A stretch of 64,000 nucleotides of DNA, taken from positions 532,071 through 596,070 of the forward strand of contig CP055308.1 of assembly GCA_013374855.1 (NCBI GenBank). Reading direction: 5' to 3'. This DNA is from Candidatus Woesebacteria bacterium. GTDB taxonomy: Bacteria > Patescibacteriota > Microgenomatia > UBA8517. How positions within the stretch are numbered: the stretch's first letter is position 1; each line of letters begins with the position of its first letter. A program made the translations under genes and the position numbers. Below the pieces are notes generated by a model. That model did no database searches, was not told the DNA's origin, and saw only the letters and a program-made list of their open reading frames with translations. This document shows positions 1 through 20,729 of this stretch, in pieces.

Positions 1-468
1 TTTGTCTTTTCTTTTGTTTTTTCGAGAATTATATCTTTCCGTTTGGGAAGATTTTTGTTTTTTGGGTTTATTTTTGTTTTTTTGGTTTACAATTTTTATC
101 TTTTTTCTATTTATTTTAGGGGAGAGTACCGGCGGTATAACCCTGTTTCTTTATCAGATGAGATTAAAGCTGTTGACTGGGTATATGAAGATGCTGGTGA
201 AGAAAAATTTAATGTGGATTTTTATGTTCCGCCTGTTGTTCCTTATTCTTATGAATATTTGTTTAAGTGGAGAGGTATGGAATTTTTTGGAAAGATTCCT
301 TCAGTGGAAATGGTTGATTTGCTTTATACTATAAGTGAACCTGACAATTTGCATCCTGAACGTCTTGAAATTTGGAGGATAAGGCAGGATAAAATAGGAA
401 GAGTAGAAGAGAAAATAGAAATTGGTTCACTTTTGGTAGAAAGAAGATCTAGAATAACTGGTGAATGA
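1..468 (+). CDS. Partial CDS (5' end outside window). C-terminal part of a membrane-anchored protein: one TM segment, then a soluble domain
   Basis: The frame of ORF 43..468 stays open back to nt 1 with no stop. A hydrophobic helix (FLFFGFIFVFLVYNFYLF) is followed by a charged soluble region. The stop lies 4 nt before the next start. ORF 2..334 in another frame is F/L-rich low-complexity. Confidence 0.4.
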   Translation, partial: FVFSFVFSRIISFRLGRFLFFGFIFVFLVYNFYLFSIYFRGEYRRYNPVSLSDEIKAVDWVYEDAGEEKFNVDFYVPPVVPYSYEYLFKWRGMEFFGKIPSVEMVDLLYTISEPDNLHPERLEIWRIRQDKIGRVEEKIEIGSLLVERRSRITGE

Positions 469-3400
469 GAACTAAAGTTTTTTTGTATTTTTTGAAAAGA
501 AGGGTTAATGTTTTTGTTTTTTTTGTGTTTCTTTTTTTAACTTTGTGGTTAAGTCGTTATTTTCTGGAGGCAGAATCCTTTTATTCTCATGATTTGGATT
601 TTAATTTAATAAGGAGCCTTGAGGCATATCTTTCATTGAAAGAAGGTCATTTTCCGTTGCGTTGGGCAGGTGACCTTAATTATGGTTGTGGTGTTCCTGT
701 CTTTAATTTTTTCTATCCTCTTGTTTATTATTTAATGAGTTTTATTTTTGTTTTTCTGGGTGATTTCCTTTTGTCTTGGAAAATATTGGTGTTTATTAGT
801 CTTTTTATTGGTAGTTGGTTTTTCTTTCTTTGGATTAAAAACGAAACTAAAGATACTCTTGCTTCTTTTGGGGGAGCTTTGATTTATCTTCTTGCGCCAT
901 ATAGATTTTCTTTGGTTTTTGTAAGAGGCTCTGTTGAATTTTTAGCCTACGCACTTTTGCCAGTTATTTTTTTTCTTGCTTCAAAGATTTTGTTTGATAA
1001 GAATAAATGTTTGTTTAAAAGAGGCTTTTTGTTTTCTTTGTTTTTAGCATTTTACTTTTTATCTCACAATATTGTGGTTTTGATTACCTTTCCAATTTTG
1101 TTGTTGTACACTCTTTTAAAACTTTTTAGAGAGAGAAGTGGTAATCCTGTCTTTATATTTTTTGTCTTTACTCTTGGTTTTTTAATGTCTTCTTTTTTTC
1201 TAGTTCCAGCATTTTTGGAAAAGGCATATGTGAGGCTGTCTATTGACAATGTTGTAGTTGATTATAGGAATCATTTTCCTACTTTAGGGCAGCTTCTGCG
1301 CTCAAGATGGGGTTATCTTTATTCTCTACCTGGTACTGATGATGGCATGTCGTTTATGCTTGGTTATCCTCAATGGCTTGTCTTGTCTTTGTCTTTTTTC
1401 TTTGCGATCTATTACATCTTTAAGACGAAGGAAAGAGCTATTGTCTTTTTGAAAAAAAATTTTTGGTTATTTTTTTATCTTTTCCTTTCTTTGCTTTCTA
1501 TTTTTCTTATGCTTCCATTGTCCTCTTTTATTTGGAGAAACATTAATACTCTACAGCAAGTTCAGTTCCCTTGGAGGTTTTTGGGATTGACAGTTTTTTT
1601 AGTAGCCTCCTTGTTTTCTTACCTGTTGGTTTTTTTAAGGAGAAGTTTTAATAAGAGAGTTTTGTATATTACTTTTGTAATAATATTCTTTATCGGTCTT
1701 TTTGGAAATAGAAATCACTTAAGAGTTTTTCCTTCGAGTGTTAAAGATTATAAAACTTTCAAAGATAACCTTTTGCGCTATTCTACAACTTCTATGGCGA
1801 ATGAGATTTTGCCTTATGGTAATTTGGCTATGTGTAGTCCTGAAGAGCCTTTCTCAAGCGAAGGGGAAATATTGGATCTTAAAAGGGGTTTAACTTATGG
1901 ATCTTTTAAGGTTAGATTTGATGAGGTACCAAAAGAAAAAGTTTTATTTCATTTAGGCTATTTTCCGGGTGTATATGAATTTACCATAAATGGCAGAGAT
2001 GGCGTGCCCTATTCAGATTGCGAAGGAAGGGTCTGTATTTCTTCAAACGAATTTGCTCCTTTTAGTTTTGTATCTTGGAAAGTAGTTCAGACTCCTGTAC
2101 AGAGGTTTTTTAATTTAATAAGTCTTTTCTCTTTTTTTGTTTGGATTATTTTGATTTTTGGTCTTTACCAAAAGAGGCAATTTTGGATCTTTCTTCTTTT
2201 GATGTTTTTATTTTTTAGACTTTATGGTCTGGAGAAAAAAATGGTTTTTGGTTGGGATCAGGAAAGAGACGCTTTTGTTGTTTCTGAGATCTTGAAGGGA
2301 AAATTAACTTTGATTGGACCGCGTGTTGTTGGCCCCAGTGGTTTTTTCCTGCCACCTTACTTTTTCTATATTCTTTCCCCTTTTTATTTTTTGGGCAGAG
2401 GTAACCCTCAGGTTTCGCTTTATCTTTTCCTATTTTCTTATTGGATTTTGTTTTTTGTTGTAGCTTATAAATCTTTTCTTAAATCTATAGGTAGAAACGA
2501 ATCCTTATTGTTTGTTTTGGTGTGGTCAACTTTGCCCCTTGCAGTTGTGGTGGATAGAATAGCTTGGAATCCTATTTTTATTCCTTTGGTTTTTATTGTC
2601 TTGTTGTTTTTTCATTATAGATACTATTCTACTGGGAGTGTTTTTTGGTTTTTTGTTCTTAGTATTTCTTATTTTTTGGGGGTATCATTTCATATACAAG
2701 GTTTGTTTTATTTTCCATTTATACTGAATGCGTTTTTGTTTGGTGGTAATAAGGTTTTTTTGAAAAAGTTTTTTTTGTTTATTTTTTCTGCTTTTTTGGT
2801 TTTTTTACCTATTATTTTGTTTGATTTGCGGCACAATTTTCTTAATTTTTCTTTGATATTTGGTTTTGGGCAAAACTCTTTGGTCAGGGGTGGTTTGTCT
2901 GATGTGTGGTCTAATTTTGTATCATCTTTTGTTAGTTTGAGGATTGGAAAATTATCAGCTTTTGTTTTTTATTTATTTTTTCTTTTTCTAAATTTCCTTT
3001 TGTTAATTAGAGTAAGATTAGCCTATAAAAAAGAACTGCTTTACTCTTTATTTTTGATTTTGCTCTCTTTTCCTATTGTTTTTTATTTTTATGGTTTTCG
3101 CCCATCAGAGTATTATTTTAATTTTTTAATCCCTGTTTTTGTTTTAATTTTTTCTCTTGCGCCCTTTGTAATTAGGCCAAGATTTGCTAGATTGTTTTTA
3201 TCTTTGGTTTTAGTTGTTTTTATTTTGTGGAGTACTTTGTCAAACCTAAAAAGTGTTGCTTACTATGATGGTGAAAGCCTCTATTTTAAGAAGAGGGTGG
3301 TTGGTTTTATTAAAGATATCACAGAGAATAGAAAATATGATTTGTCAATTGATTCAAAAAGTGGCAAAGATGCTGGGTTTTATTATCTTTTAAGTTTTTA

Positions 3401-3527
3401 TGGCCTTGAGCATAACAGAAATAATACTTTTTCCTTGATAAGAATAGTGGAGCCACCAGACAGCAGTTGCTTTACACGCTTTGGGATCTATTCTGTTTGT
3501 TTTTTGCCTCAAGATTTTGGTTGGTAG
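465..3527 (+). CDS. Very large (1020 aa) polytopic membrane protein with two GT-C-like modules. The N-module belongs to the RWxxD...FNFFYP / YRFSLVFVRG / FQFPWRF paralog family (YfhO / PTPS-related-like). The C-module has a WDQERDAF (DE-type) motif as in ArnT/PMT-like enzymes
   Basis: One continuous ORF. Residues about 1-560 align motif-for-motif with ORFs 13626, 16124 and 17757, including the terminal beta-rich soluble domain plus TM anchor. Residues about 600-1020 form a second multi-TM block that begins GWDQERDAFVVSEILKGKL. Confidence 0.55.
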   Translation: MRTKVFLYFLKRRVNVFVFFVFLFLTLWLSRYFLEAESFYSHDLDFNLIRSLEAYLSLKEGHFPLRWAGDLNYGCGVPVFNFFYPLVYYLMSFIFVFLGDFLLSWKILVFISLFIGSWFFFLWIKNETKDTLASFGGALIYLLAPYRFSLVFVRGSVEFLAYALLPVIFFLASKILFDKNKCLFKRGFLFSLFLAFYFLSHNIVVLITFPILLLYTLLKLFRERSGNPVFIFFVFTLGFLMSSFFLVPAFLEKAYVRLSIDNVVVDYRNHFPTLGQLLRSRWGYLYSLPGTDDGMSFMLGYPQWLVLSLSFFFAIYYIFKTKERAIVFLKKNFWLFFYLFLSLLSIFLMLPLSSFIWRNINTLQQVQFPWRFLGLTVFLVASLFSYLLVFLRRSFNKRVLYITFVIIFFIGLFGNRNHLRVFPSSVKDYKTFKDNLLRYSTTSMANEILPYGNLAMCSPEEPFSSEGEILDLKRGLTYGSFKVRFDEVPKEKVLFHLGYFPGVYEFTINGRDGVPYSDCEGRVCISSNEFAPFSFVSWKVVQTPVQRFFNLISLFSFFVWIILIFGLYQKRQFWIFLLLMFLFFRLYGLEKKMVFGWDQERDAFVVSEILKGKLTLIGPRVVGPSGFFLPPYFFYILSPFYFLGRGNPQVSLYLFLFSYWILFFVVAYKSFLKSIGRNESLLFVLVWSTLPLAVVVDRIAWNPIFIPLVFIVLLFFHYRYYSTGSVFWFFVLSISYFLGVSFHIQGLFYFPFILNAFLFGGNKVFLKKFFLFIFSAFLVFLPIILFDLRHNFLNFSLIFGFGQNSLVRGGLSDVWSNFVSSFVSLRIGKLSAFVFYLFFLFLNFLLLIRVRLAYKKELLYSLFLILLSFPIVFYFYGFRPSEYYFNFLIPVFVLIFSLAPFVIRPRFARLFLSLVLVVFILWSTLSNLKSVAYYDGESLYFKKRVVGFIKDITENRKYDLSIDSKSGKDAGFYYLLSFYGLEHNRNNTFSLIRIVEPPDSSCFTRFGIYSVCFLPQDFGW

Positions 3528-3563: not shown

Positions 3564-4340
3564 ATGAAGAAGGGTGAAATCTTTTTGTCTGTTGTTATTC
3601 CTTGCTATAACGAGGCAGAAAACATTAATCGCGGAGTTTTGGAGGGAGTTTATAACTATTTTAAAGACAAGGATTATTCTTGGGAAGTTTTGGTCTCAGA
3701 TGATGGTAGCAGTGATGAAAGCGTCTCTCTAATAGAAGATAGAATTAGATCTTTGCCTAATTTTTACTTAATAAAGAATTCTCATGGTGGCAAACCGAGT
3801 GCTCTCTTGGGTGGAGTTAAAGTGGCAAGAGGGAAATATGTGCTTTTTACTGATATGGATCAGTCTACTCCAATCTCAGAACTTGATAAACTTATTCCTC
3901 ATACGAAAGATAATGTGGAGGCTGTTATAGGTTCACGGGGTGTAATAAGGAAGGATTTCCCTCTTTACAGAAAAATTGGGGCTGTTGTTTTTATGATGGT
4001 AAGGAGAGTTTTGATTTTGCCGGAGTTGGTTGATACTCAATGTGGCTTTAAACTTTTTAGGTCAGACATCTTGAAGAAGGTCTTTCCCAAATTAGAGTTT
4101 TTTAAGAAAGAGGAAAATCGTGTTGGTTGGGTAGTTAGCTCATACGATGTTGAACTTTTGCACCTTGTAAAAAAAACAGGCGGAAGGATAGTTGAGATTC
4201 CTGTTTTGTGGAAAGATGAGGATAAAAGTAAAACTAAAGGCTCCTCTTTTAAAAGGTACTTCAAAGAATCAAAAGAGATGTTTTTCCAGATATTGAGGGT
4301 TAAGCTAAATGATTGGCGTGGTATGTATAAGGATTTATGA
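3564..4340 (+). CDS. GT2 polyprenol-phosphate glycosyltransferase (DPM1/GtrB/ArnC-like)
   Basis: LSVVIPCYNEAENI...VSDDGSSDES...TDMDQSTP is the classic GT2 DXD / DPM1 architecture. It is about 258 aa and has an AGGAAG 6 nt upstream. Confidence 0.75.
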   Translation: MKKGEIFLSVVIPCYNEAENINRGVLEGVYNYFKDKDYSWEVLVSDDGSSDESVSLIEDRIRSLPNFYLIKNSHGGKPSALLGGVKVARGKYVLFTDMDQSTPISELDKLIPHTKDNVEAVIGSRGVIRKDFPLYRKIGAVVFMMVRRVLILPELVDTQCGFKLFRSDILKKVFPKLEFFKKEENRVGWVVSSYDVELLHLVKKTGGRIVEIPVLWKDEDKSKTKGSSFKRYFKESKEMFFQILRVKLNDWRGMYKDL

Positions 4341-5857
4341 AACTTTTTTTGAGAAAGAATATTTTTTATTTTTTTGTCTTTTTGGTTTTAGTTTTTTCTT
4401 TTTTGATTCGTGTAGTCAAACTCTCTTATTGGCCTATTTTTGCCGATGAGGCAATTTACATTCGTTGGGCTCAGGTAATGAGGAGTGAAGTTAATCTTCG
4501 TTTTTTGCCCCTTTCCGATGGTAAACAACCTCTTTTTATGTGGCTTGTAATTCCTTTTCTTAAGATCTTTCAAGATCCCTTGTTTGCTGGTAGGCTTTTG
4601 TCGGTTATTTCTGGTACAGCTTCTGTATTGGTTGTTTTTTTAATTGCTCTTTTTCTATTTAAGGAAAAAAAGGTTGCTCTTTTTGCAAGCTTGATTGCTT
4701 CTATATTACCCTTTTTTGTTTTCTTTGATAGAAAAGCTTTGGTTGACAGCCTGCTTTTGTTTTTTGGTCTTTGTCTTTTCCTTTTTTCTTTTTTAGCTTT
4801 CTCTAGAAAAAGGTTTGATTTTGTTTTACTTGCTGGTTTTTCTTTAGGTGGGGCTCTTTTGACAAAATCGCCTGCTTTATTTTTTTCTTTGCTTTTACCT
4901 ACTTTTTTGCTTTTTTTTGATTTTAAGAAAAGTAAAAAACTTAGTTTTAGACAAGTTTTTTTGGCTTTATTTTATCTTTCTGTAATTTACGCAGTAGGTT
5001 ACCTTTTCTATAACATTCTTCGACTGGGACCAAATTTTCACCTTTTGGCTAGTCGCAATATGGATTATGTTTTTCCTTTTTTGCATGTTTTTCAAAATCC
5101 TCTTGACCCATTTCTATCCCATATTAAGGATATCTTTATTTGGTTTTTTTATTTTGGTATTTTATTTATACTACCTCTTTTTTTGCTAGGGTTTTGTTTT
5201 GGTCTTAAAAAGTATAGAAAGGAAGTACTAGTCTTGTTTTTTTGGTTTTTGTTTCCACTTTTAGTCCAGGCAGAATATGCTAGGGTTTTTACAGCTCGTT
5301 ATATTTTATTTACAATTCCTTTCTTTTTGATAATCTCATCTTTATCGTTGAGATTTGCAAATCGGTACAAATTTATCTTTTTTCCCTTCTTTGGATTATT
5401 TATTGTTTTTTCACTTTTCCAAAATTTCCGGTTTATTTTTAATCCAAATAAATCATTTCTGCCAAGAAATGAAAGATCTGGTTATCTTGAAGAGTGGTCT
5501 GCCGGAACTGGTATAAGAGAAGTGTCTGTATATTTGGTTGATTTTTATAGAAAAGAAAAAAGAGAGATTCTTGTTGGTACGGAAGGTTATTTTGGAACGC
5601 TTCCTGATGGATTACAGGTTTATCTAAATGATTATCCTCAGATTAAAGTGGCTGGAATGGGTATTAATTTTAATAATGTTCCTGAAGGATTGGTTACTTC
5701 AGCCGGTAGTGGCACACCGACATTTTTTGTAGTGAATAGTTCAAGGGCAAAGATAGAAGATTTGAAAAACCTAGAGCTTTTAGCAGAGTATCCGAAAGCA
5801 AAGAAAAAAGATGGTTCTTTTGAGAAACTTCTTTTTTATAGAGTTAAAAGTAACTAG
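4337..5857 (+). CDS. GT-C family membrane glycosyltransferase (ArnT/PMT, GT39/83-like) with a C-terminal soluble domain
   Basis: WPIFADEAIYIRWAQ carries the DE motif in the first extracytoplasmic loop. It has about 10 predicted TM segments and an ATGA overlap with the upstream GT2. Confidence 0.6.
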   Translation: MKLFLRKNIFYFFVFLVLVFSFLIRVVKLSYWPIFADEAIYIRWAQVMRSEVNLRFLPLSDGKQPLFMWLVIPFLKIFQDPLFAGRLLSVISGTASVLVVFLIALFLFKEKKVALFASLIASILPFFVFFDRKALVDSLLLFFGLCLFLFSFLAFSRKRFDFVLLAGFSLGGALLTKSPALFFSLLLPTFLLFFDFKKSKKLSFRQVFLALFYLSVIYAVGYLFYNILRLGPNFHLLASRNMDYVFPFLHVFQNPLDPFLSHIKDIFIWFFYFGILFILPLFLLGFCFGLKKYRKEVLVLFFWFLFPLLVQAEYARVFTARYILFTIPFFLIISSLSLRFANRYKFIFFPFFGLFIVFSLFQNFRFIFNPNKSFLPRNERSGYLEEWSAGTGIREVSVYLVDFYRKEKREILVGTEGYFGTLPDGLQVYLNDYPQIKVAGMGINFNNVPEGLVTSAGSGTPTFFVVNSSRAKIEDLKNLELLAEYPKAKKKDGSFEKLLFYRVKSN

Positions 5858-5882: not shown

Positions 5883-7379
5883 GTGTTAGGCTTTTCTAAA
5901 AAAAATATTTCAGAGGTTGAGGAAATTGATTTTCAGATTGTGAAGAAGAGAGCGGTTTCAGGTGTGGTTGTTCTGACAGGTAGAACTTTTTTCTTGAGCC
6001 TTCTTTCCTTTTTTGCTACAGCATTGCTTACTGTTTTTCTTGAGCCTTCGCAGTTTGGAGTTTTTTGGATAGTCTCTGCTGTAGTTAGTTTTCTTTCTTA
6101 TTTTAGCGATATAGGTTTGGCGGCAGCTTTGATTCAAAAAAAAGAAAAATTAAACCAAAATGATTTAAATACAACCTTTGTAGTTCAACAAGTCTTGGTT
6201 ATTTTTATTTTATTTTTGCTGTTTCTTTTTTCTCCAGCATTGGTGCGTTTTTATAGTCTTGATTTTGAGGGTAAGATTCTTCTTTATGCGCTTGGTGTAA
6301 GCCTTTTTATGTCGTCGCTTAAAACCATTCCTTCAGTTTTGCTTGAAAGAAACTTGGAGTTTGGAAAGTTGATAATACCACAAATATTGGAGAATTTAAC
6401 TTATAACGTTTTGGCAGTGTTTCTTGCTTGGCAGGGATTTGGTACAAGAAGCTTCACTTACAGTGTTTTGGCAAGAGGATTTGTGGGACTTATAGCCATC
6501 TATGTTATTTATCCTTGGAGACCAACTTTTTCTTTTTCTAAAGAGTCTTTGCGTTCTCTTCTTAAGTTTGGAGTCCCCTATCAACTTAACACGTTCCTTG
6601 CCACGATCAAAGATGATGGGCTAACTGCCTTTTTGGGTGGAATATTGGGTGGTTATGGTGTTGGACTTTTGGGTTGGGCGCAAAAATGGGGACAAGCACC
6701 TCTGAGATTTTTTATGGATCAGGTGATAAAAGTAACTTTTCCTGCTTTTTCTAGGATTCAAGATAACAAAGATGAATTAAGATCAGCCTTGGAGAGATCT
6801 TTGTTTTTTATTTCATTTTTGGTTTTTCCTTCTTTGTTTGGACTACTGGCTTTGGCGCCTCTCTTAGTTTACCTTATACCAAAGTATATTAAATGGGAAC
6901 CAGCGCTTATTCCGCTCTATTTGATTGGTTTTAATACAATTTTTGCCTCTATCTCTACGCAACTGACGAATTTTCTAAATGCAACAGGTAGAATAAAAAC
7001 GACTTTTAAACTTATGATTATGTGGACAACTCTTTCTTGGCTTTTTATACCTTTTCTTTCGTATAAGTTTGGAGTGATTGGGGCTGCCTTTGGGTATGCT
7101 TTGGTTGGCGTAAGTTCTTTAGTTGTATTCTTTGTTGTTTTTAGGTTTTTGCGGTTTTCTTTTTTAAGATCTTTTTTAAAGCCTTTGGTGGCTTCTTTGA
7201 TTATGTTTGTAACACTTTATTTTTTGAGAATAAAGTTAACAATTTCTTTTTTTTCTTTTTGGGTTCTTCTTGGTGTGGGTGGGATAGTCTATTTTTTGTT
7301 GATTTACCTTATGGTGGGCAATTTGCTTATAGAAGATGTTAAGAAAAGCACAAAGTTACTTTTTGGAAAAAAGAACTGA
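5883..7379 (+). CDS. Wzx-like oligosaccharide flippase / polysaccharide biosynthesis protein (MOP superfamily)
   Basis: About 12-14 TM helices spread over 498 aa. The N-terminal charged region, the helix layout and the G-rich loop (GGILGGYGVGLLGW) are typical of the Polysacc_synt family. It has a GTG start. Confidence 0.55.
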   Translation: MLGFSKKNISEVEEIDFQIVKKRAVSGVVVLTGRTFFLSLLSFFATALLTVFLEPSQFGVFWIVSAVVSFLSYFSDIGLAAALIQKKEKLNQNDLNTTFVVQQVLVIFILFLLFLFSPALVRFYSLDFEGKILLYALGVSLFMSSLKTIPSVLLERNLEFGKLIIPQILENLTYNVLAVFLAWQGFGTRSFTYSVLARGFVGLIAIYVIYPWRPTFSFSKESLRSLLKFGVPYQLNTFLATIKDDGLTAFLGGILGGYGVGLLGWAQKWGQAPLRFFMDQVIKVTFPAFSRIQDNKDELRSALERSLFFISFLVFPSLFGLLALAPLLVYLIPKYIKWEPALIPLYLIGFNTIFASISTQLTNFLNATGRIKTTFKLMIMWTTLSWLFIPFLSYKFGVIGAAFGYALVGVSSLVVFFVVFRFLRFSFLRSFLKPLVASLIMFVTLYFLRIKLTISFFSFWVLLGVGGIVYFLLIYLMVGNLLIEDVKKSTKLLFGKKN

Positions 7380-9039
7380 TTTGGCAATCTTTGCTGTTAT
7401 TTTTTTAGGCACTCTTGTGTGGTCTTTGACTATGGTAAGGAGCGGCCTTTGTTTTGATAGAAACTGTCAATCTGGTGTTGGATTTTGGGGAGCAAATGGA
7501 CATGATGGGGTATGGCATGTTGCTTTGATTAAAAGTTTGTCTTCTGGAAGTTTAGATAACCCTGTTTTTGCAGGAGAGCGTTTAAAAAATTACCATCTTG
7601 GTTATGATTTTTTTCTTTCTTTAATGTCCCGCTTTTTTAAAGTCAGTCCTTCGTTTTTGTATTTTCAAATTTTTCCACCCGTTTTGGCGTTTTTAATTGG
7701 TTTTCTTGTTTTTAAGTTGGTTTTTAAGATGGCAAGAAACAAACTTTTTGTCTTTTGGTCTTTATTTTTTGTTTATTTTGGGGGAGGGTTTGGTTTTCTG
7801 GTTAGCCTAGTAAGAGAGGGTAAACTTGCAGGGGACTCAATGTTTTGGGCCCAGTCGCAGGCTACAACGTTATTAAATCCTCCTTACGCTTTTTCTTTGA
7901 TTTTTTTACTTTTGGGTATTTTGTTTTTTGAAGGTTATTTGAAGAGGGGAAAATCTAGTTTTGCTTTATTAACAATAGTGTCATGGGGTTTTCTTTCTCA
8001 AATAAAAATCTATGCTTTTGTGTTGGTTATACTTTCGCTTGTTAGTTTGATTTTTTTGAGAATCTCTCATTTTAGGAAACTAACTACTATTTTTTTGGGA
8101 GTTTTGTTTTTGAATATTTTGATTTCTTTACCAATAAATCGGTTGCCCTCTTCGATTATTGAGTTTAGACCTTTTTGGTTTCTTGAGGCGTTGATGGCGT
8201 TTCCGGATCGATTGGGCTGGGCTAAATTTTATCAAGCGATGACCACTTTTGTATTGGCAGGTAATTATATGAAGGCTTCTATATTATATCTTATCGCTTT
8301 TATTTTATTCTTTTTTGGGAATCTGGGTTCTAGATTTTTATCTTTGAGAACATTTTTTAGGAAAAAGAATGGCCTAACTTTATTTTTGTATTTAATAATC
8401 TTTTGGGGATTGTTTCTGCCTCTTTTTTTTGTTCAAAGAGGAACACCCTGGAATACTATTCAGTTTTTTTATTATTCTTTGTTTTTTTTGAGCGTCTTTG
8501 CTGGTATCGAATTGGGTTTTCTTGCTTTGAAATTTAGGCGACGATTTTGGTTAACTTTGTTATTTTTTCTTATAACTTTACCGACAACTGCTACAACACT
8601 TGGGCATTATTTGCCACGTTTTCCGCAATCAAGATTGCCAAAAGGGGAAATTGAGGCTCTAAGTTTTTTATCGCAGCTTCCACATGGAAGAGTTTTATCT
8701 TTACAAGTCCCAGGAGTGGTTTATGATGATTATAATTCCCCCACCCCTTTGTATGCTTATGATTCAACTTCTTATGTTAGTGCTTTTTCTGGTAAAGAGG
8801 TTTATCTGGAGGATTTAGTTAATCTAAGCATAATGGGTTATGATTACAAGCCAAGACTTAATCAAGTTGAATCTTTTCTTAAGAATCCTGACTCGGGTAA
8901 TTCAAAAGAATTTCTTGATAAGGAAAAGATTGATTATATTTATATCGTTAGAAGATCCTCTCTTGATGAAAATAAGCTTAATTATTTAGAGAGGGTCTTT
9001 GAGAATGAAGATTCTTTGATTTTAAAAGTTGACATCTAA
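7336..9039 (+). CDS. Polytopic membrane protein with a C-terminal soluble domain (uncharacterized; possibly GT-C or polymerase-like)
   Basis: It has multiple TM helices, a GANGHDGVWHVALI motif and a C-terminal hydrophilic domain of about 150 aa. It overlaps the upstream gene by 44 nt, so the true start may be downstream. Confidence 0.4.
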   Translation: MLRKAQSYFLEKRTDLAIFAVIFLGTLVWSLTMVRSGLCFDRNCQSGVGFWGANGHDGVWHVALIKSLSSGSLDNPVFAGERLKNYHLGYDFFLSLMSRFFKVSPSFLYFQIFPPVLAFLIGFLVFKLVFKMARNKLFVFWSLFFVYFGGGFGFLVSLVREGKLAGDSMFWAQSQATTLLNPPYAFSLIFLLLGILFFEGYLKRGKSSFALLTIVSWGFLSQIKIYAFVLVILSLVSLIFLRISHFRKLTTIFLGVLFLNILISLPINRLPSSIIEFRPFWFLEALMAFPDRLGWAKFYQAMTTFVLAGNYMKASILYLIAFILFFFGNLGSRFLSLRTFFRKKNGLTLFLYLIIFWGLFLPLFFVQRGTPWNTIQFFYYSLFFLSVFAGIELGFLALKFRRRFWLTLLFFLITLPTTATTLGHYLPRFPQSRLPKGEIEALSFLSQLPHGRVLSLQVPGVVYDDYNSPTPLYAYDSTSYVSAFSGKEVYLEDLVNLSIMGYDYKPRLNQVESFLKNPDSGNSKEFLDKEKIDYIYIVRRSSLDENKLNYLERVFENEDSLILKVDI

Positions 9040-13625: not shown

Positions 13626-16124
13626 GTGAAAAAGAAACCTTTAGTCTCTCTAGTAATATTAAATTATAATACACGCGAGCTTACTTTGAATCTTATTGAT
13701 TCTATTGAAAAAAGTAGTGATTTTGAGATTATCCTGGTTGACAATAATTCTACAGATGGTTCTTGGGAAAGTTTTAGAGAACTCAAAATTCCAAACTTGG
13801 TCCTTGTTCGTAATAAGGAAAATCTTGGTTTTTCAAAAGGTGTAAATGTTGGTATTAGGAAGGCAAGAGGTGAGTATATACTTCTTTTGAATTCGGATGT
13901 TAAAGTTAAAAAGGGATCAATTTTGGCGCTTGTTGATTTTGCTAAAAAAACTCCAGATGCGGGTGTCGTCGCTCCCAAGCTTATTTTAGGAAATGGCGAA
14001 GTTCAAAAGTCTGTTTTTCACTTTCCAACTATTTGGGGTGCGTTTAAGGAGTATATCTTAAAAATTAAAAATTCTTATGGGCCGTATTTGCCGAAATCTG
14101 AGAAACCACAAGCTGTTGATGTTGTTGTGGGTGCAGCTTTTCTTATCAAACGTGAAGTTTTGGAAAAAGTGGGACTTTTTGACGAGCGTTATTTTATGTA
14201 TTTTGAGGACATAGATTACTGTCGTCGTGTATGGAGAGCTGGTTATAAAGTTTATTACCTACCCGCAGTTTCTATGATCCATTATCATGGACAGAGTGTT
14301 AAAAAAATTGCAAGTCCAGAAAACCAATGGAAAATGCTTATTCCATCAAGCAAAATTTATTTTGGTGTTTTTAGACATTGGGCAATTTATTTCGTTACTA
14401 GGTTTGGAAGCTTAATCGACAAAGTTTTTCAGAATTCTCTTATTAGGATAGTTTTTATTTTAATCATTTTTATTTTTTTGACATTTCCTGTTGTAAGACC
14501 ACTTTTGCGAAAGGGATATTTTTATATGCAAGATGACCTTCAGGCTTTTAGATTGCATCAAATGGATAAATGTTTTAAAGATTTGCAATTTCCGTGTCGT
14601 TGGGTTCCAGATGCTGGCTATCAGTATGGTTATCCTCAATTTAATTTTTATCCTCCCTTCGTTTATTATCTGGGTGAATTAATTCATCTCTCAGGATTTC
14701 AATTTGTGGATGTGGTTAAGATATTATTTATTCTTGGTTATGTTTTTTCTGCTCTGGCTATCTTTATTCTTATTCGTACACTGGTTGGTTTTTGGCCAGC
14801 TCTTGTGGGATCTGTTGTTTATACATACGCTCCATATAAAGCAGTTGAGGTTTATGTAAGAGGTGCGTTAAGTGAATTTTGGTCTTTTGTTTTTTTTCCT
14901 CTTATATTTTGGTCTTCTTACCTCTTAATAAAGACTGATAAAAGGAAATATCTAATTTTTCTTTCTTTATTTTTAGCTTTTTTGTTAACCACTCATGTTT
15001 TAATGTCTATGGCATTTATTGTTCCTTTTGCTTTATGGGTTGTTTTTTGGTTAATTAAAGAGAGAAAGTTTAAGACATCTGTAGTTTTGAACCTTTTCTT
15101 TTCTTTTTTCTTGGCTTTTTGTCTTTCTGCTTTCTTTGTTTTGCCTCTTTTTTTTGAAAGAAAGTTTGTTCATGTGGAGACGATGATAATGGGTTATTTT
15201 GACTATCGAAAGCATTTTCTGGGGATCTATAAGTTGATTTTTGATAGGGATTGGGGTTATGGTTCTTCTGGTTTTCCTGATGAGAAATTAAATCTTTCTT
15301 TGGGGGTAGTTCAATTTTTGTCTTCTGTTTTGATTTTCCTTTATTCTTCTTTTATTTTGTTAAAGTTTAAAAGCGGAAGGGTTAAAAAGCTTTCGCTTCT
15401 TGTTGTTTTTTTGTTTTTTCTATCTTTGGCTAATCTTTTTATAATTCATCCCCGTTCTGTTTTTATTTGGGAAAGATTTCCACTTTTGCATTGGTTTCAG
15501 TTTCCGTGGAGATTTATGACAATAGTTCTTTTTTTAACTTCTGTCTTAATCGGAGTTGGCTTAGTTTTATTTCGTGGAAGAGCCGCGTTTTTAATTGGTT
15601 TTTCAATTTCTGTTTTGGCAATAGTTTTAAATTTAGCTTACTTTAGTCCTAGGGATTGGTATTACGATGTTGATGATAGTACTAAGTTTTCTGGGGAACT
15701 TTGGGAGAAGCAGCTTACGATTAGTATTTTTGATTATTTACCAATTTACTCGGTTTTGCCTCCTTGGGAGAAAGCACCAGAGCTACCTGAAGTTATTGAA
15801 GGTAATGCTAGTTTTAGCTATTACACAAAAGGTAGTCATTATCAGATGGGACGAGTTGATGTTTTGACGAATAATGCTTTGTTGAGAATTCCTTTGTTTG
15901 ACTTTCCTGGTATGAATGTTTTTGTTGATGGGAAAAAGGTACCCCATGTAAATGATAATTGTGTGGGTCAGCGCTATTGTTTGGGGCTTGTTACTTTTTC
16001 TGTATCAAAAGGGAGTCATTTAGTTGAGATAAGATTGCAAGATACGCCGGTGAGAAAGATAGGTAATTATTTAACCTTAATTTCCTTTTGTGCGATAGTG
16101 TTTTTGCTTGTAAAGAAAAGATAA
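13626..16124 (+). CDS. Fusion protein. An N-terminal GT2 glycosyltransferase domain (about 270 aa) is joined to a C-terminal paralog-family GT-C-like membrane domain (YfhO / PTPS-related-like)
   Basis: N-terminus: VSLVILNYNTRELT..VDNNSTDGS..YFEDIDYCRR. C-terminus: FPCRWVPDAGYQYGYPQFNFYPPFVYYLGE, YAPYKAVEVYVRGALSEF, FQFPWRF, then a beta-rich terminal domain plus a TM anchor. It has a GTG start. Confidence 0.65.
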   Translation: MKKKPLVSLVILNYNTRELTLNLIDSIEKSSDFEIILVDNNSTDGSWESFRELKIPNLVLVRNKENLGFSKGVNVGIRKARGEYILLLNSDVKVKKGSILALVDFAKKTPDAGVVAPKLILGNGEVQKSVFHFPTIWGAFKEYILKIKNSYGPYLPKSEKPQAVDVVVGAAFLIKREVLEKVGLFDERYFMYFEDIDYCRRVWRAGYKVYYLPAVSMIHYHGQSVKKIASPENQWKMLIPSSKIYFGVFRHWAIYFVTRFGSLIDKVFQNSLIRIVFILIIFIFLTFPVVRPLLRKGYFYMQDDLQAFRLHQMDKCFKDLQFPCRWVPDAGYQYGYPQFNFYPPFVYYLGELIHLSGFQFVDVVKILFILGYVFSALAIFILIRTLVGFWPALVGSVVYTYAPYKAVEVYVRGALSEFWSFVFFPLIFWSSYLLIKTDKRKYLIFLSLFLAFLLTTHVLMSMAFIVPFALWVVFWLIKERKFKTSVVLNLFFSFFLAFCLSAFFVLPLFFERKFVHVETMIMGYFDYRKHFLGIYKLIFDRDWGYGSSGFPDEKLNLSLGVVQFLSSVLIFLYSSFILLKFKSGRVKKLSLLVVFLFFLSLANLFIIHPRSVFIWERFPLLHWFQFPWRFMTIVLFLTSVLIGVGLVLFRGRAAFLIGFSISVLAIVLNLAYFSPRDWYYDVDDSTKFSGELWEKQLTISIFDYLPIYSVLPPWEKAPELPEVIEGNASFSYYTKGSHYQMGRVDVLTNNALLRIPLFDFPGMNVFVDGKKVPHVNDNCVGQRYCLGLVTFSVSKGSHLVEIRLQDTPVRKIGNYLTLISFCAIVFLLVKKR

Positions 16125-17785
16125 TGAAAAGGATTTTTTTTTGGTTGTCTTTTCTACTATCTTTGGTTTTTGTTTCTTGGCCACTTTTTCGCAGTGGTTA
16201 TTTTACTCACCACGATAACATTCAGATAATTAGAATTTTTGAGATGAGAAGATGTATTTTGGATTTGCAGATTCCTTGCCGTTGGGTACCTGATATGGGA
16301 TATGGGTATGGATTCCCGCTTTTTAACTATTATGCTCCTTCTGTTTATTATTTGGGGGCTATTTTGAGCTTTGCCTTGGGTTATATAGGAGCGGCTAAAA
16401 TGCTTTTTTTCTTAAGTTTTGTTGTTGGTTTTTTGGGTATGTTTGTTTTTTCAAAGTTGTTTTTTGGCTTTTGGGGAGCTTTGGTATCTTCAGTTCTCTT
16501 TACCTATGCTCCATATCGTGCTTTGGATGTTTATGTAAGAGGTGCTCTTTCTGAAATTTTTGCTATTTCTGTTTTTCCACTAGTTCTTTATTATTCTTAT
16601 CAGTTGCTTCAGTTTGGCAGGAAAAGGCATTTTGTTGGATTGGTTATCTCTCTTTCTTTTTTTCTGATAACTCACAATGTGATGGTGATGCTTTTTTTGC
16701 CAGTTGCTGTTTTGTTTTTCATTTTGATGACCTTTTTGGTTGAGAAAAAAAGCCGTCTTATTTCTTTATTTGTTGGATTAGTATTGAGTTTTGGTTTATC
16801 TTCATTTTTTGTTTTACCTGCTTTTTTGGAAAAAAATCTAGTTCAGATCGAATCTATGATTCAAGATGAACTTAATTTTAGAGCTCATTTTGTCAAAGTT
16901 GGCCAGCTTTTTTGGATTAGGGATTGGTATTATGGTGCTTCCCAACCTCAGCAGAATGAAACTATATCATTTCAAGTGGGTTGGCCTCATTGGTGGTTGG
17001 TAGCTGTTTCAATTCCGTTTTTGTTGCGGGAGCTTTTGAAAAGAGGGACTAAGGTTAGTAAGACATTTTGGATTGCTCTCTTGGCGGTTTTTGTTTTTAT
17101 AGTATCTGTTTTTATGACGCATAATAAATCTGCTTTTATTTGGGAGAAAATGGCTCTTTTGAGTTTTGCTCAGTTTCCTTGGAGATTTTTATCTTTGGCT
17201 ATTTTTTCTTCCTCTTTAGTTGGTGGGTATTTATTAAGCTTAACAAGGGGAAATTTGCTAAAATTTGCCTTTGCTTTGATTGTTTTGCTTGCAATTGTCT
17301 TGAATTGGAGATACTTTAGACCTGAAAGGTTTTTGGATATTGATGACGTTAGTGTTTTAGGTGGTGCTTTCTGGGAAGAACAGCAGAAGGGTTCTGTTAG
17401 AGACTATCTCCCAAAGGGTGCAAAAATACCATCTTCTATTGCTCCAACGCGGTTTTCCATAGATACTTCCGATGTTGTTTTGTATGATTTTGACAAATCT
17501 ACGAAAAGTTGGAAATTTAGTGCCAAAGTAGATAAAGAATTGGAGATAGAAATTCCAGTTTTCGACTTTCCTTATTGGAGTGTAAGAATTGGCGATTCTT
17601 TGGTTAACTATAAAGTGGGAGAGAACGGCCTTATGAGGTTAAAGTTACCAAGAGGAGAGTATATTGTTCAGGGTGTTTTACAAGATACGACAATAAGAAG
17701 ATTTTCTAATTTTATATTTCTTTTTAGTTTGACAGCCTTTTTGTATTTATTGAAAAATGGGAAGAGTTTTAAAATTTTTAGATAA
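16124..17785 (+). CDS. Paralog-family GT-C-like polytopic membrane protein (YfhO / PTPS-related-like)
   Basis: IPCRWVPDMGYGYGFPLFNYYAPSVYYLGA, YAPYRALDVYVRGALSEIF, FAQFPWRF. I set the start at MKRIFF, which overlaps the upstream stop (TAATG). Confidence 0.6.
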   Translation: MKRIFFWLSFLLSLVFVSWPLFRSGYFTHHDNIQIIRIFEMRRCILDLQIPCRWVPDMGYGYGFPLFNYYAPSVYYLGAILSFALGYIGAAKMLFFLSFVVGFLGMFVFSKLFFGFWGALVSSVLFTYAPYRALDVYVRGALSEIFAISVFPLVLYYSYQLLQFGRKRHFVGLVISLSFFLITHNVMVMLFLPVAVLFFILMTFLVEKKSRLISLFVGLVLSFGLSSFFVLPAFLEKNLVQIESMIQDELNFRAHFVKVGQLFWIRDWYYGASQPQQNETISFQVGWPHWWLVAVSIPFLLRELLKRGTKVSKTFWIALLAVFVFIVSVFMTHNKSAFIWEKMALLSFAQFPWRFLSLAIFSSSLVGGYLLSLTRGNLLKFAFALIVLLAIVLNWRYFRPERFLDIDDVSVLGGAFWEEQQKGSVRDYLPKGAKIPSSIAPTRFSIDTSDVVLYDFDKSTKSWKFSAKVDKELEIEIPVFDFPYWSVRIGDSLVNYKVGENGLMRLKLPRGEYIVQGVLQDTTIRRFSNFIFLFSLTAFLYLLKNGKSFKIFR

Positions 17786-19433
17786 AAATATCTGGTTATT
17801 GTTAATGTTACTTTCTTTGCCTTCTGTTTTTTCCCTTTTTGCAAGGAGAGGCTATTTTGGTGTTTCGGATGATATGCATGTAGCGTGGCTTTATGAAATG
17901 GTGAGAGTTTTGGAATCTGGTAAATTGCCTCCACGTTTTGTTCCCGATTTGAGTTTTGGTTTTGGTTATCCTCTTTTTAATTTTGTTTTTCCTTTGCCAT
18001 TTTATTTAGGTGCCTTGTTTTATTTTTTGGGTTTTAGTTTGGTGGATAGTACTAAGATAGTCTTGGCTATAAGTTTGCTTTTCTCGTCTTTGTTTATGTA
18101 CTTTCTCTTGAGGAAATTTGTAAACAAATATACTGCACTATTAGGTGGAGTGATTTATCTTTATGCACCATATAGGGCAACTGATGTATATGTAAGAGGT
18201 GCAATTGGGGAGTCGCTTGCTTTTGTTTTTCTTCCCCTTATAGTTCTATCTTTTGTAAATGTTTTGAATTTGGGAAGGAAAAAAAATGGTTTGAGGTGGA
18301 TTGGTTTGGGATCTTTGTTTATTGCAGGGTTGATTTTGTCTCACAATATAACAGCATATATGTTTTTGCCTTTTTTGATTGTTCTTCCTGTATTGTTTAA
18401 AAACAGAAAGAATATATTTTATTTGGTCTTATCTTTTTTGGGTGGTCTTTTTTTATCTTGTTATTTTTGGATTCCGGCTATTTTTGATAGTAAGTTAGTT
18501 AAATATGATACAGTTTTTTCCTATTTTGATCACTTTCCAACATTGAAACAGCTTGTTACTCCTCATTTTGGTTATGGAGCATCTGTTCCTGGTCCTTATG
18601 ATACTATGTCATTTTTTATTGGCGTTCCACAACTTGTGGTTTTATTTTTGGGTTTGTTTTTATTCTTGTTCAATTGTAGGGTATTCTTACAAAAGGAAAA
18701 AACTATTTTTCTCTGGGCACTGGTCTTGTTTTTTGTATCTCTTTTTATGATGAATTATCGATCTAGTTTTTTGTGGAGGATTATTCCTCTTTTAGGTTAT
18801 TTTCAATTTCCTTGGAGGTTCTTAACTTTGATTGTATTTTCTTCCTCTTTGTTTTTGATAGCGTTTGATAGGTTGAAAATTAATAAGTATGTTTTTTTGT
18901 ATTTGTCTTTTGTAATCTCCGCAGTCTCGTATTATGTTTATTTTAAACCAAGTGAATATTTGATGAGGGGTGATAGTTATTATATAAATCGCTATATCCC
19001 AGTACCCCAAGCAAGCTCTGAGTATAAAAAGATATCGGAGGAGTATTTAAGGTTACCTGTTTTAACTCAAAAAAGACCTGAAGATGTTTTGCCGGTTTTT
19101 TTTGGAAATGGTTTTCTTGTTGACAAGATTAATGATATTAATAATTTGGATATTAGAGCAAGAATATTTGTGACGGATAATAATGGGACGATAGTCAACT
19201 TTAGGAAGTATGATTTTCCTGGTTGGGTGGTTATGGTAGATGGAGAGAAGGTTAAACATTTTACTGGTACTCCTTATGGCCAAATTTCATTTTTTGTCTC
19301 TTCGGGTTATCATGATGTTAATATTGTTTTTAAGGAGACTACACGTAATATTTTGTTAAATTTTATATCTTTGTTTTCTTTATTGGTTATTTTTACTCTG
19401 GTTTTTAGAAAAGGGGATAAAGGTGGTTTTTAA
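17757..19433 (+). CDS. Paralog-family GT-C-like polytopic membrane protein (YfhO / PTPS-related-like)
   Basis: PPRFVPDLSFGFGYPLFNFVFPLPFYLGAL, YAPYRATDVYVRGAIGESLAF, FQFPWRF. Confidence 0.6.
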   Translation: MGRVLKFLDKNIWLLLMLLSLPSVFSLFARRGYFGVSDDMHVAWLYEMVRVLESGKLPPRFVPDLSFGFGYPLFNFVFPLPFYLGALFYFLGFSLVDSTKIVLAISLLFSSLFMYFLLRKFVNKYTALLGGVIYLYAPYRATDVYVRGAIGESLAFVFLPLIVLSFVNVLNLGRKKNGLRWIGLGSLFIAGLILSHNITAYMFLPFLIVLPVLFKNRKNIFYLVLSFLGGLFLSCYFWIPAIFDSKLVKYDTVFSYFDHFPTLKQLVTPHFGYGASVPGPYDTMSFFIGVPQLVVLFLGLFLFLFNCRVFLQKEKTIFLWALVLFFVSLFMMNYRSSFLWRIIPLLGYFQFPWRFLTLIVFSSSLFLIAFDRLKINKYVFLYLSFVISAVSYYVYFKPSEYLMRGDSYYINRYIPVPQASSEYKKISEEYLRLPVLTQKRPEDVLPVFFGNGFLVDKINDINNLDIRARIFVTDNNGTIVNFRKYDFPGWVVMVDGEKVKHFTGTPYGQISFFVSSGYHDVNIVFKETTRNILLNFISLFSLLVIFTLVFRKGDKGGF

Positions 19434-19469
19434 TTGTGTGGAGATTGTTTTATAATCCTTTATATTAGA

Positions 19470-20729
19470 ATGAAAGGCAAACTTTTTTGGATTGTTTTAT
19501 TTTTGGGGATAATTGTTAGGTTTTTCCTTGCTTTTTCATCAATACATCCTGATTTGGTAGCTTTTTACACAGGAGGTCAGATTGTTTTTGATGGTCATTT
19601 TTGGGATCTTTATGATTACATAGAGAAATTACCTTTTGATAGCCCTTTGAGAAAGATTTATCCTGCCGATCTTTTTATTTATCCACCACTTGTTTATCTT
19701 TTTTTTGGTTATGTGGCAACAACTTTTTCTACTATTGTCCCTGTTTATGTTCGTGAGGCTTTGATTTACGATCTGCCTTCGGTGCTTGGTGATTTAAGGC
19801 TTAATCTTTTTCTATTGTTGTTTAAGGTTAGTTATTTGCCTTTTGATTTGGGAATAGCTTTTTTGTTTTTGCAAATTTTTAAGGATAAGCCAAAAAAAGG
19901 ATTTTCAGCTTTCGTTCTTTGGATTTTTAATCCTGTTAACTTGTATGTTACTTACATGATGGGGCAGTTTGATGTTTTACCAACCTTTTTTGTAGTTTTT
20001 GCTTTTTATCTCATTGTTTCTTTTTATAAAACAAAACCTCATTATCTTTATCTGGCTGGATTTTCTTTAGGTGTGGGAGCCTCATTAAAAATTTATCCTT
20101 TACTATTTATACCTCTCTTAATGTTTTTAGAGAAAAATTGGTTTAGGAGGTTGCTTTTGTTTTTTGTCTCTTTTGGTGTTTATCTTTTGTCTATATTTCC
20201 ATTTTTAGACTCTCCTGGATTCCGATCTTCGGCGCTTTTGGCAGGACATACGCTTAAAAGTTTTTATGCAACAATACCAATCTCTGGAGGGCAGTCGATA
20301 ATTATTTATCTATCTCTTTTGTTTTTTGTTTATTGGGTTTTTTACTTTAGGGGAGTAACTTTAAATAATTTGTGGAGTGGTTTTTTTATTATTTTATTGT
20401 TGTTTTTTGTTTTTACACATTACCACCCTCAGTGGTTTTTATGGATAATCCCCTTTTTAATTTTTGATTTGATTGATTCAGATGGAAAAAACTGGCCTTT
20501 GGTTTTATTATCGGTCTTTGTGTTTTTTGGTTTGGTATTGTTTTTTGACAGGAGTCTAAGTTTGGGTCTGTTTTCCCCTCTGTTTCCCTCTCTTTTTAGT
20601 GGACAATCAATCTGGGAACTTCTTGGAGTAAATTTGGAATTAAATTTGTGGAGAAGTGTCTTGCACTCATTGTTTGTGTCGGTAGCTCTCTTTTACTTTT
20701 ACATTCTCATTCCCAAAAATTGGAAGTAA
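19470..20729 (+). CDS. Polytopic membrane protein, DUF2029 / GT87-like (putative mannosyltransferase-type GT-C)
   Basis: FNPVNLYVTYMMGQFDVLPTFF is an NP...GQ.D motif. It has about 10 TM segments. I set the start at the internal ATG (MKGKLFW), just after the upstream stop. Confidence 0.4.
   Translation: MKGKLFWIVLFLGIIVRFFLAFSSIHPDLVAFYTGGQIVFDGHFWDLYDYIEKLPFDSPLRKIYPADLFIYPPLVYLFFGYVATTFSTIVPVYVREALIYDLPSVLGDLRLNLFLLLFKVSYLPFDLGIAFLFLQIFKDKPKKGFSAFVLWIFNPVNLYVTYMMGQFDVLPTFFVVFAFYLIVSFYKTKPHYLYLAGFSLGVGASLKIYPLLFIPLLMFLEKNWFRRLLLFFVSFGVYLLSIFPFLDSPGFRSSALLAGHTLKSFYATIPISGGQSIIIYLSLLFFVYWVFYFRGVTLNNLWSGFFIILLLFFVFTHYHPQWFLWIIPFLIFDLIDSDGKNWPLVLLSVFVFFGLVLFFDRSLSLGLFSPLFPSLFSGQSIWELLGVNLELNLWRSVLHSLFVSVALFYFYILIPKNWK

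Follow-up and report, generated by a model that had tools for sequence, protein, structure and literature searches.

Two predicted GT-C-family modules joined in a single protein of Candidatus Woesebacteria

We analysed a 64,000-nucleotide (nt) stretch of DNA (the window) from a Candidatus Woesebacteria bacterium (assembly GCA_013374855.1, contig CP055308.1, positions 532,071 to 596,070 of the forward strand). One gene of the window, 465..3527 on the + strand, encodes a protein of 1020 amino acids (aa) that, judged from family profiles and structural models, joins two complete, different GT-C-family modules head to tail (the N module and the C module, respectively). The fusion is real and conserved, but it is rare relative to standalone modules. 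We consider it probable that the protein is a hetero-tandem of two autonomous GT-C membrane glycosyltransferases, which would carry out two sugar additions outside the membrane as part of one pathway.

The start codon, an ATG, shares bases with the stop codon of the gene before it (ATGA at 465-468), and the list of open reading frames (ORFs) shows no internal stop. NCBI and Logan also list an identical 1020-aa protein (P0001), encoded on a contig of 802,554 bp. The window is AT-rich (~32% G+C), and nearly all of its genes are on the + strand. The parts of the gene, including its transmembrane (TM) elements, are as follows:

465..3527, + strand: whole fused gene, N module plus C module, 1020 aa (ORF list)
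465..1709, + strand: membrane core of the N module, aa 1-415, PF10131/YfhO-like GT-C
588..593, + strand: H42-D43 pair of the N module, with the candidate catalytic Asp, ~13 residues past the first TM helix (TM1, modelled as helix 2-29) and invariant in 59 fused homologs
1710..2093, + strand: N-module beta-rich soluble domain, aa 416-543; cysteines 457, 519 and 524 are invariant (strands 468-540 in the model)
2094..2177, + strand: TM anchor that ends the N module, aa 544-571 (helix 544-571 in the model), also C-terminal in standalone paralogs
2169..2180, + strand: basic linker QKRQ between the modules, aa 569-572 (junction alignment)
2181..3278, + strand: membrane core of the C module, aa 573-938, PMT_2/ALG12-like GT-C
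2253..2270, + strand: W597-D598-Q-E600-R601-D602 motif in the predicted first outside loop of the C module, with candidate catalytic acids (conservation)
3279..3524, + strand: terminal alpha/beta soluble domain of the C module, aa 939-1020 (modelled secondary structure, residues 371-452 of the half)

The two halves have different relatives. In BLASTP searches, aa ~31-571 align to the products of 16088..17785 and 17757..19433 and to the C-terminal 540 aa of the product of 13626..16124 (E 1e-33 to 1e-43), and these alignments extend to the C-terminal ends of all three window paralogs. No BLAST paralog of the C half was identified among the window ORFs. A profile hidden Markov model (HMM) of the standalone N family covers aa 9-571 of the fusion (601 bits), and one built from standalone ~450-aa PMT_2-like proteins covers aa 572-1012 (409 bits). 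Profile-profile comparison recovers the N and C modules as distant homologs over ~190 columns of the GT-C core (probability 90%, E 1.4e-6).

Structures were predicted for each half separately, and each half was aligned with whole standalone relatives (alignment A2, n = 57, for the N half; A3, n = 73, for the C half). Both models are confident, with a predicted local distance difference test (pLDDT) of 93.9 and a predicted template modelling score (pTM) of 0.93 for the N half, and values of 93.1 and 0.91 for the C half. In the fold search each half matches 21 GT-C structures ahead of any other fold. The closest solved folds include Pmt4, Pmt2 and Pmt1 and the mannosyltransferases ALG12, ALG9, ALG3 and PIG-M; AftD, AftA, AftB, EmbA and PimE are also among the matches. 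Sequence profiles reach less far: that of the C family finds one solved protein (GPI mannosyltransferase 1, PIG-M; E 3.5e-6) and that of the N family finds none. Both the N and the C module have the multi-spanning membrane core of GT-C enzymes. In the N model this core is followed by the beta-rich domain (strands 468-540) and then by a long final helix (544-571).

An earlier note, made from the letters of this DNA, had proposed two different GT-C modules within one 1020-aa ORF. The single stop-free ORF, the two family HMMs and the two GT-C fold models bear this out. Its description of the first half as a complete module of the paralog family, ending in a soluble domain and TM anchor, agrees with the BLASTP alignments to aa 571 and with the modelled strands and helix, and the second multi-TM block that it placed directly afterwards is where the C-module HMM lies. 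Two details of that description are revised here. The motif said to begin the second block is present (aa 597-628, from nt 2253), but the block starts ~25 residues earlier, with a TM1 of its own (aa ~573-590). That motif was called DE-type; it is indeed an acidic first-loop motif, but of the form D-x-E-x-D and not the contiguous DE seen in the FADEAIY of 4337..5857. The note had advised modelling the halves separately and had held that a second half without a GT-C fold would undo the idea. Both halves gave confident GT-C folds, and the C model matched 21 GT-C structures first.

Conservation was evaluated in an alignment of 59 fused homologs (A1; mean column identity 49%). In the N module the invariant residues are H42, D43, R50, R66, Y141, P145-Y146-R147, R154, E158, H201-N202, E252, H270-F271-P272 and W370-R371, as well as the cysteines at 75, 457, 519 and 524. 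In the C module they are R585, W597, D598, R601, D602, G618-P619, D697, W701-N702-P703, H743, F786-D787, N794 and Y883-Y884; E600 is conserved at >=90%. The acidic positions are also retained outside the fusion: H42-D43 is conserved at >=90% in 57 standalone and paralogous N modules, and among the 73 standalone C relatives D598 is invariant and D602 conserved at >=90%. Neither module looks degenerate by sequence, given the median identities to the query (40% for N, 34% for C) and the invariant residues in both.

In both models the acidic motif follows the first TM helix and precedes the first loop helix. The active-site acidic motif of GT-C enzymes sits in the first external loop (PMC7801869), and a conserved acidic residue occupies the first-loop position in both the N module (D43) and the C module (D598/E600/D602). 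Their position in the models suggests that these residues may be catalytic.

All 59 homologs are colinear across the junction, which in all fused homologs consists of the N terminal anchor plus a K/R-rich linker of 2-15 residues. We infer the topology by the positive-inside rule from the basic residues of the N-terminal end (MRTKVFLYFLKRR) and of the linker, together with the order of helices in the models. The N module would have an even number of TM helices (about 12), with its beta-rich domain (aa 416-543) outside. The last N helix (aa 544-571) would return the chain to the cytoplasm, where the QKRQ turn leads into TM1 of the C module. Because the N module would end in the cytoplasm via this last helix, a basic turn of four residues could suffice for an N-in start of the C module. 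Such a start would place both first loops and both soluble domains outside, side by side. Given a linker of only 2-15 residues, the last TM helix of N and the first of C must be neighbours in the membrane.

Fused homologs are not confined to this genome. Some 60 full-length homologs came from a word-indexed search (994-1071 aa, 35-73% identity, 95-100% coverage); those with names are labelled Woesebacteria, Shapirobacteria or Patescibacteria. A scan of GTDB species representatives gave 79 loci, and an HMM census of stop-to-stop ORFs identified both modules in one ORF at 12 complete loci (L003-L014) and in two contig-end fragments (L018, L041). Locus L019 was considered as a split case and rejected, because the end of the N module lies in its second ORF and the locus is a fused gene with a frameshift inside that module. 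Several records from SRP*_co* metagenome-assembled genomes (MAGs), including L003, L007, L013 and L019, are titled 'uncultured Gammaproteobacteria' or 'Pseudomonadales bacterium'. These loci are syntenic with, and 36-42% identical to, those of Woesebacteria and Shapirobacteria, and the titles look like placeholder mislabels.

The fusion is uncommon, as the earlier note had supposed. Of the 785 proteins that an exhaustive HMMER search of 1.84 billion cluster representatives gave at E <= 1e-30, no more than about eight are full-length N+C proteins (plus four fragments). Could a sequencing or assembly error have joined two adjacent genes in the source genome? Split orthologs with overlapping frames do exist, and L019, a related locus, carries a frameshift inside its N module. 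However, a record from an 802-kb contig gives the identical 1020-aa protein, and the junction is colinear in about 60 independent fused homologs whose identity goes down to 35%. These come from differing samples and assemblers, and 12 are GTDB species representatives. The earlier note had singled out nt 2150-2250 as the place where a frameshift or stop might lie. The bases there read through cleanly, with no stop and no frameshift, and the stop-free fused ORF recurs in about 60 distinct proteins. An artefact is thus extremely improbable, and we regard it as effectively refuted.

The two modules also occur as separate genes, the arrangement that the earlier note had recommended looking for. Some of the nearest standalone N modules (~40% identity) are followed directly by a gene that is a true ortholog of the C module. 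In L001 an N protein of 575 aa is followed by a C protein of 456 aa with a 23-nt overlap, in L002 the proteins are 615 and 463 aa with a 4-nt overlap, and in L016 they are 625 and 487 aa. The C genes at these three loci score 492-557 bits against the C-module HMM. L023 is a weaker and more distant split case, and in L022 and L058 the order is reversed (C then N). Split N proteins stop right past the anchor (e.g., ...SDKKR*) and split C proteins start with a short basic head and TM1; thus, loss of a stop together with a frame adjustment suffices to produce the fusion. A neighbour-joining (NJ) tree of N modules groups all fused sequences in a single clade, whose sister clade contains the verified split loci. 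For this reason the sequences suggest that adjacency came first and was followed by a single fusion in one Microgenomates clade, in which two adjacent, overlapping genes would have been joined by read-through, once.

Other genomes have only one module at the syntenic position of the fusion. N-only loci are L082 and L084, and C-only loci are L085 and L086 (L083 was left out because its locus sequence ends 75 nt past the N module). L082 is nested within the fused clade and has a GT2 gene 123 nt after its N module, a spacing that suggests the C module was deleted cleanly within that clade. By its Pfam labels L084 could be taken for a split N-then-C locus; this was rejected, since HMM scores and BLAST identify its downstream gene as an 'upstream-type' PMT_2 paralog. 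From the N-only and C-only loci it follows that the modules are separable enzymes.

Fusion also recurs within the N family. P0245 and P0248 (1116 and 1093 aa) each contain two full N modules, and P0281 (1670 aa) has two full N modules, a partial third and a C-terminal DUF3105. P0312 (980 aa) has an N module and a 390-aa multi-TM block for which no Pfam or PDB sequence match was found. These N+N and N+N+N+DUF3105 proteins, like the GT2+N fusion of the window, follow the same principle as the N+C protein, but they combine copies of the same family, or a soluble GT2, rather than two GT-C families. They fit a rule in which the terminal TM anchor gives a cytoplasmic C-terminal end where another N-in membrane module can attach, and it is because of this anchor that tandem fusions of the family (N+C, N+N, N+N+N) would arise repeatedly. 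Separately, a 1364-aa ORF at 3550-7641 of L079, from an Acidobacteria MAG ('Sulfopaludibacter'), has an N module at aa 785-1336 preceded by ~780 residues without a Pfam match.

The genes near the fusion provide the context for a possible function. Those that bear on it, and the paralogs of the N module, are:

1..468, + strand: 3' end of an upstream PMT_2-like GT-C gene, cut at the window edge (orthology; ATGA overlap)
3564..4340, + strand: GT2, 258 aa, candidate polyprenyl-phosphate-sugar synthase (PF00535, E 1e-24)
4337..5857, + strand: PMT/PMT_2 GT-C, 506 aa, with a FADEAIY first-loop motif (PF13231, E 3e-15; PF02366, E 1e-12)
5883..7379, + strand: Wzx-like flippase, Polysacc_synt_3 (PF13440, E 5e-55)
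13626..19433, + strand: three N-module paralogs, 13626..16124 (with a GT2 fused at its N-terminus), 16088..17785 and 17757..19433 (BLASTP, HMM, Pfam)

The gene order is conserved in 10 of the 12 fused loci. Upstream it consists of a GT2 (~240 aa), a PMT_2 protein (~520 aa), intervening genes and a PMT_2-like protein (~500 aa) before the fusion. Downstream are a GT2 (~255 aa), a PMT/PMT_2 protein (~515 aa), a Wzx-like flippase, a membrane protein (the ortholog of 7336..9039) and another GT2. Orthologs of 1..468 (38-49% identity) lie directly upstream of the fusion in L005, L008, L012, L014 and L019; against the C-module HMM they score 170-206 bits. We considered 1..468 as a standalone copy of the C module and rejected this, given that its BLASTP match to the fusion is non-significant and orthology identifies it as the tail of a different PMT_2-like paralog. 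From the ATGA overlap, this gene is translationally coupled to the fusion. Orthologs of the GT2 at 3564..4340 (36-59% identity) directly follow the fusion in 10 of the 12 fused loci; its best solved relative is the dolichol-phosphate-mannose synthase of Pyrococcus (E 5.6e-12, residues 8-215), and the next are ArnC (E 1.3e-10) and GtrB. Syntenic orthologs were also found for 4337..5857 (41-49% identity) and for 5883..7379 (44-67% identity), the latter being the flippase that a transmembrane glycosylation system calls for. The upstream GT2 and PMT_2 genes are fused in L012 (1316-3451) and L037 (1413-3617) and adjacent elsewhere. Together with the GT2+N-module fusion in the window (13626..16124), these proteins link the small GT2s functionally to GT-C consumers, by the Rosetta-stone argument.

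Beyond this cluster, the 64-kb window contains at least 15 GT-C-type modules (PMT_2, PMT, GtrII, PF10131-like, DUF6056), for example at 1-468, 465-3527, 4337-5857, 13626-19433, 25564-28772, 38736-40085, 45381-46940, 48116-49417, 52036-53388, 55280-56653 and 59316-61025. Genes of the GT2 and GT1/GT4 types number about a dozen, and Wzx-like flippases are encoded twice (5883-7379, 49899-51176). Together these make up an unusually large share of sequence for an organism with only a ~0.8-Mb contig on record. No tRNA or Rfam RNA was identified in the window. Four large predicted proteins of 431-567 aa within the glycosylation cluster (7336-9039, 19434-20729, 20734-22074 and, on the - strand, 23952-25463) have no Pfam or NCBIfam match; at least that at 7336-9039 is a multi-TM membrane protein, and elsewhere its ortholog keeps a syntenic place in the cluster of the fusion.

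We propose the following pathway. At the inner face of the membrane the GT2 encoded by 3564..4340 would take the sugar from a nucleotide sugar and attach it to polyprenyl phosphate, and the lipid-linked sugar would then be flipped across. Each GT-C module could transfer sugar from a polyprenyl-phosphate donor to an extracytoplasmic acceptor, perhaps a glycopolymer of the cell surface or a surface protein rich in Ser/Thr. Two different glycosidic linkages in the same pathway would thus be formed by one polypeptide. A polyprenyl-phosphate or -diphosphate sugar as donor for both modules is indirectly suggested by the adjacent, syntenic GT2, which resembles dolichol-phosphate-mannose synthase, ArnC and GtrB. 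Architecture, residue conservation, both folds, synteny and the fused, split, N-only and C-only states are what the analysis documents directly; topology, catalytic roles, the type of donor and the action of both modules in one pathway we infer from these. Two transfers are the best reading, and sequential action on the same acceptor is plausible.

Several points weigh against the proposal. The genomes with only an N or only a C module weaken the idea of sequential action on one acceptor. They indicate that neither module needs the other, and the fusion may carry no mechanistic coupling. The NJ tree from which a single fusion is read was built without support values. The GT2 at 3564..4340 is far below every NCBIfam equivalog cut-off and is counted as without TM helices; its role as a lipid-sugar synthase is a guess from homology. 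To our knowledge, no activity, donor or acceptor has been established for any member of either subfamily. Also, the Pfam scores of the fusion are low, at 23.7 bits for PF10131 (PTPS_related) on the N half (gathering cut-off 26.4) and 17 bits for PF13231 (PMT_2) on the C half (gathering cut-off 26.1).

Class membership of the modules can be specified further from their relatives. A construct of aa 569-1020 alone has no PF13231 match, and NCBIfam has no match for the fusion or for either half. PF10131 is matched by 36 of the 57 N-type relatives (best E 1e-18); further ones have matches to DUF6541, PMT_2, YfhO or STT3. PF10131 is listed in the Pfam GT-C clan as a family of unknown function (PMC7801869). 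The YfhO family itself (PF09586) is not matched by the query and is matched by only three of the 57 relatives (best E 1.9e-6), and the N module is related to that family but not a member of it. On the C side, the query falls below the PF13231 cut-off, yet 47 of the 73 standalone relatives match PMT_2 (best E 4e-13), so that the C module is a divergent subfamily at the PMT_2 edge. A Pfam scan of the fusion found neither PF02366 nor MIR. Without a PMT-domain match and without a MIR domain, the fused protein is not a strict GT39 PMT, and the name 'glycosyltransferase family 39 protein' carried by some homologs is an automatic database name.

Other explanations for the tandem are less likely. The modules might form one obligate unit on one acceptor, a covalent heterodimer in the style of Pmt1-Pmt2 or EmbA-EmbB, in which, for example, one module binds or positions acceptor or donor for the other and the two are not independent enzymes. 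The very short linker, which makes the last N and first C helices neighbours, is consistent with this, as are the overlaps of 4-23 nt in split orthologs, which suggest that the two are translationally coupled and made in equal stoichiometry. Pmt4, Pmt2 and Pmt1, which are among the closest solved folds, function as obligate dimers (PMC12705809). Against it stand the N-only (L082, L084) and C-only (L085, L086) genomes, which keep the rest of the cluster, so that co-occurrence at the syntenic locus is not obligate; moreover, each module retains an invariant acidic motif of its own. We consider such a unit unlikely.

Alternatively, only one transfer may occur if one module is a non-catalytic GT-C fold that serves as an acceptor scaffold or a lipid-handling subunit. 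PIG-U, an inactive GT-C relative, provides a model. However, first-loop Asp/Glu and other polar residues are invariant in both modules, in 59 fused and >50 standalone relatives, both modules occur alone in other genomes, and catalytic GT-Cs outscore PIG-U by far in both searches; this explanation is quite improbable. A bolder version of the two-enzyme proposal is that the protein is a bifunctional co-polymerase, whose two side-by-side sites would alternately add two sugars to form an extracellular repeating heteropolymer. The donors would be two different polyprenyl-phosphate sugars, and the conserved cluster has two small GT2 genes in most relatives. We regard this as a speculative idea with little chance of being correct. 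If true, such an enzyme would parallel, among GT-C enzymes, the two-domain GT-A glycosaminoglycan synthases, and would amount to a GT-C heterodimer in covalent form. The hetero-tandem of two autonomous glycosyltransferases remains our preferred explanation.

GT-C enzymes are large and hard to study, and they build N- and O-glycans, GPI anchors, lipid A modifications and mycobacterial walls. Several form non-covalent homo- or heterodimers, the rationale for which is debated. A natural, conserved tandem that unites different GT-C cores covalently is a compact object for studying the packing of GT-C cores and the sharing of lipid-linked donors, and its fused, split, N-only and C-only forms provide natural controls. 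It is also a Rosetta-stone link between the uncharacterised PF10131-like family and the PMT_2-like family, and it points to an unusually GT-C-rich envelope-glycan pathway in tiny-genome Microgenomates. Structural work on GT-C enzymes and studies of the envelope in candidate-phyla bacteria should profit from the finding; alone it resolves no long-standing question. The sequences are already public under automatic names. We found no published GT-C+GT-C fusion and no functional work on PF10131, within an incomplete literature coverage that left most subscription journals outside.

A multi-component system of transmembrane glycosylation consists of a GT-A-type lipid-sugar synthase, a flippase and a GT-C enzyme (PMC8035078). 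Such systems include ones with a Wzx-type flippase (GacK) and operons with two GT-Cs (PgfM1, PgfM2) (PMC8035078, PMC12041528). As predicted from its genes, with the GT2 at 3564..4340 as candidate synthase, the fusion cluster would match this definition. In the Gram-positive systems CsbB/GtcA/YfhO, GacI/GacK/GacL, PgfS/PgfM1/PgfM2 and GtrB/PgtC2, as here, a GT-A/GT2 enzyme related to such synthases, a flippase and GT-C enzymes are encoded together. The N module belongs to the PF10131/YfhO-like branch, the flippase is Wzx-type like GacK, and the Pgf operon likewise pairs one GT-A with two GT-C enzymes. Unlike in these systems, the two GT-C modules are in one chain, the C module is PMT_2/ALG12-like and not YfhO-like, at least four GT-C modules are neighbours, and the host is a Patescibacterium.

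The mycobacterial and corynebacterial envelope set of Ppm1 with MptA-D/PimE, AftA-D and EmbA/B/C provides a further parallel, in that many GT-Cs are fed by a GT2 synthase and a polymer is made outside the membrane. The likeness to AftD and EmbC drawn in the earlier note is only a loose one: AftD and the Emb proteins have one GT-C core with carbohydrate-binding (non-GT-C) domains and no second GT-C core, and there is no sequence-level relationship. In structure, the closest known proteins are Pmt4/Pmt2 and ALG12/ALG9/ALG3/PIG-M. Pmt1-Pmt2 and Pmt4 (GT39) differ in being separate chains that form non-covalent dimers and in having a MIR beta-trefoil, which is absent in the fusion (identity 8-13%). 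ALG12/ALG9/ALG3 (GT22, GT58) and PIG-M (GT50) are single-module proteins of the eukaryotic endoplasmic reticulum (identity 9-13%). In function, the closest would be the Gram-positive multi-component systems and the mycobacterial GT-C sets fed by Ppm1.

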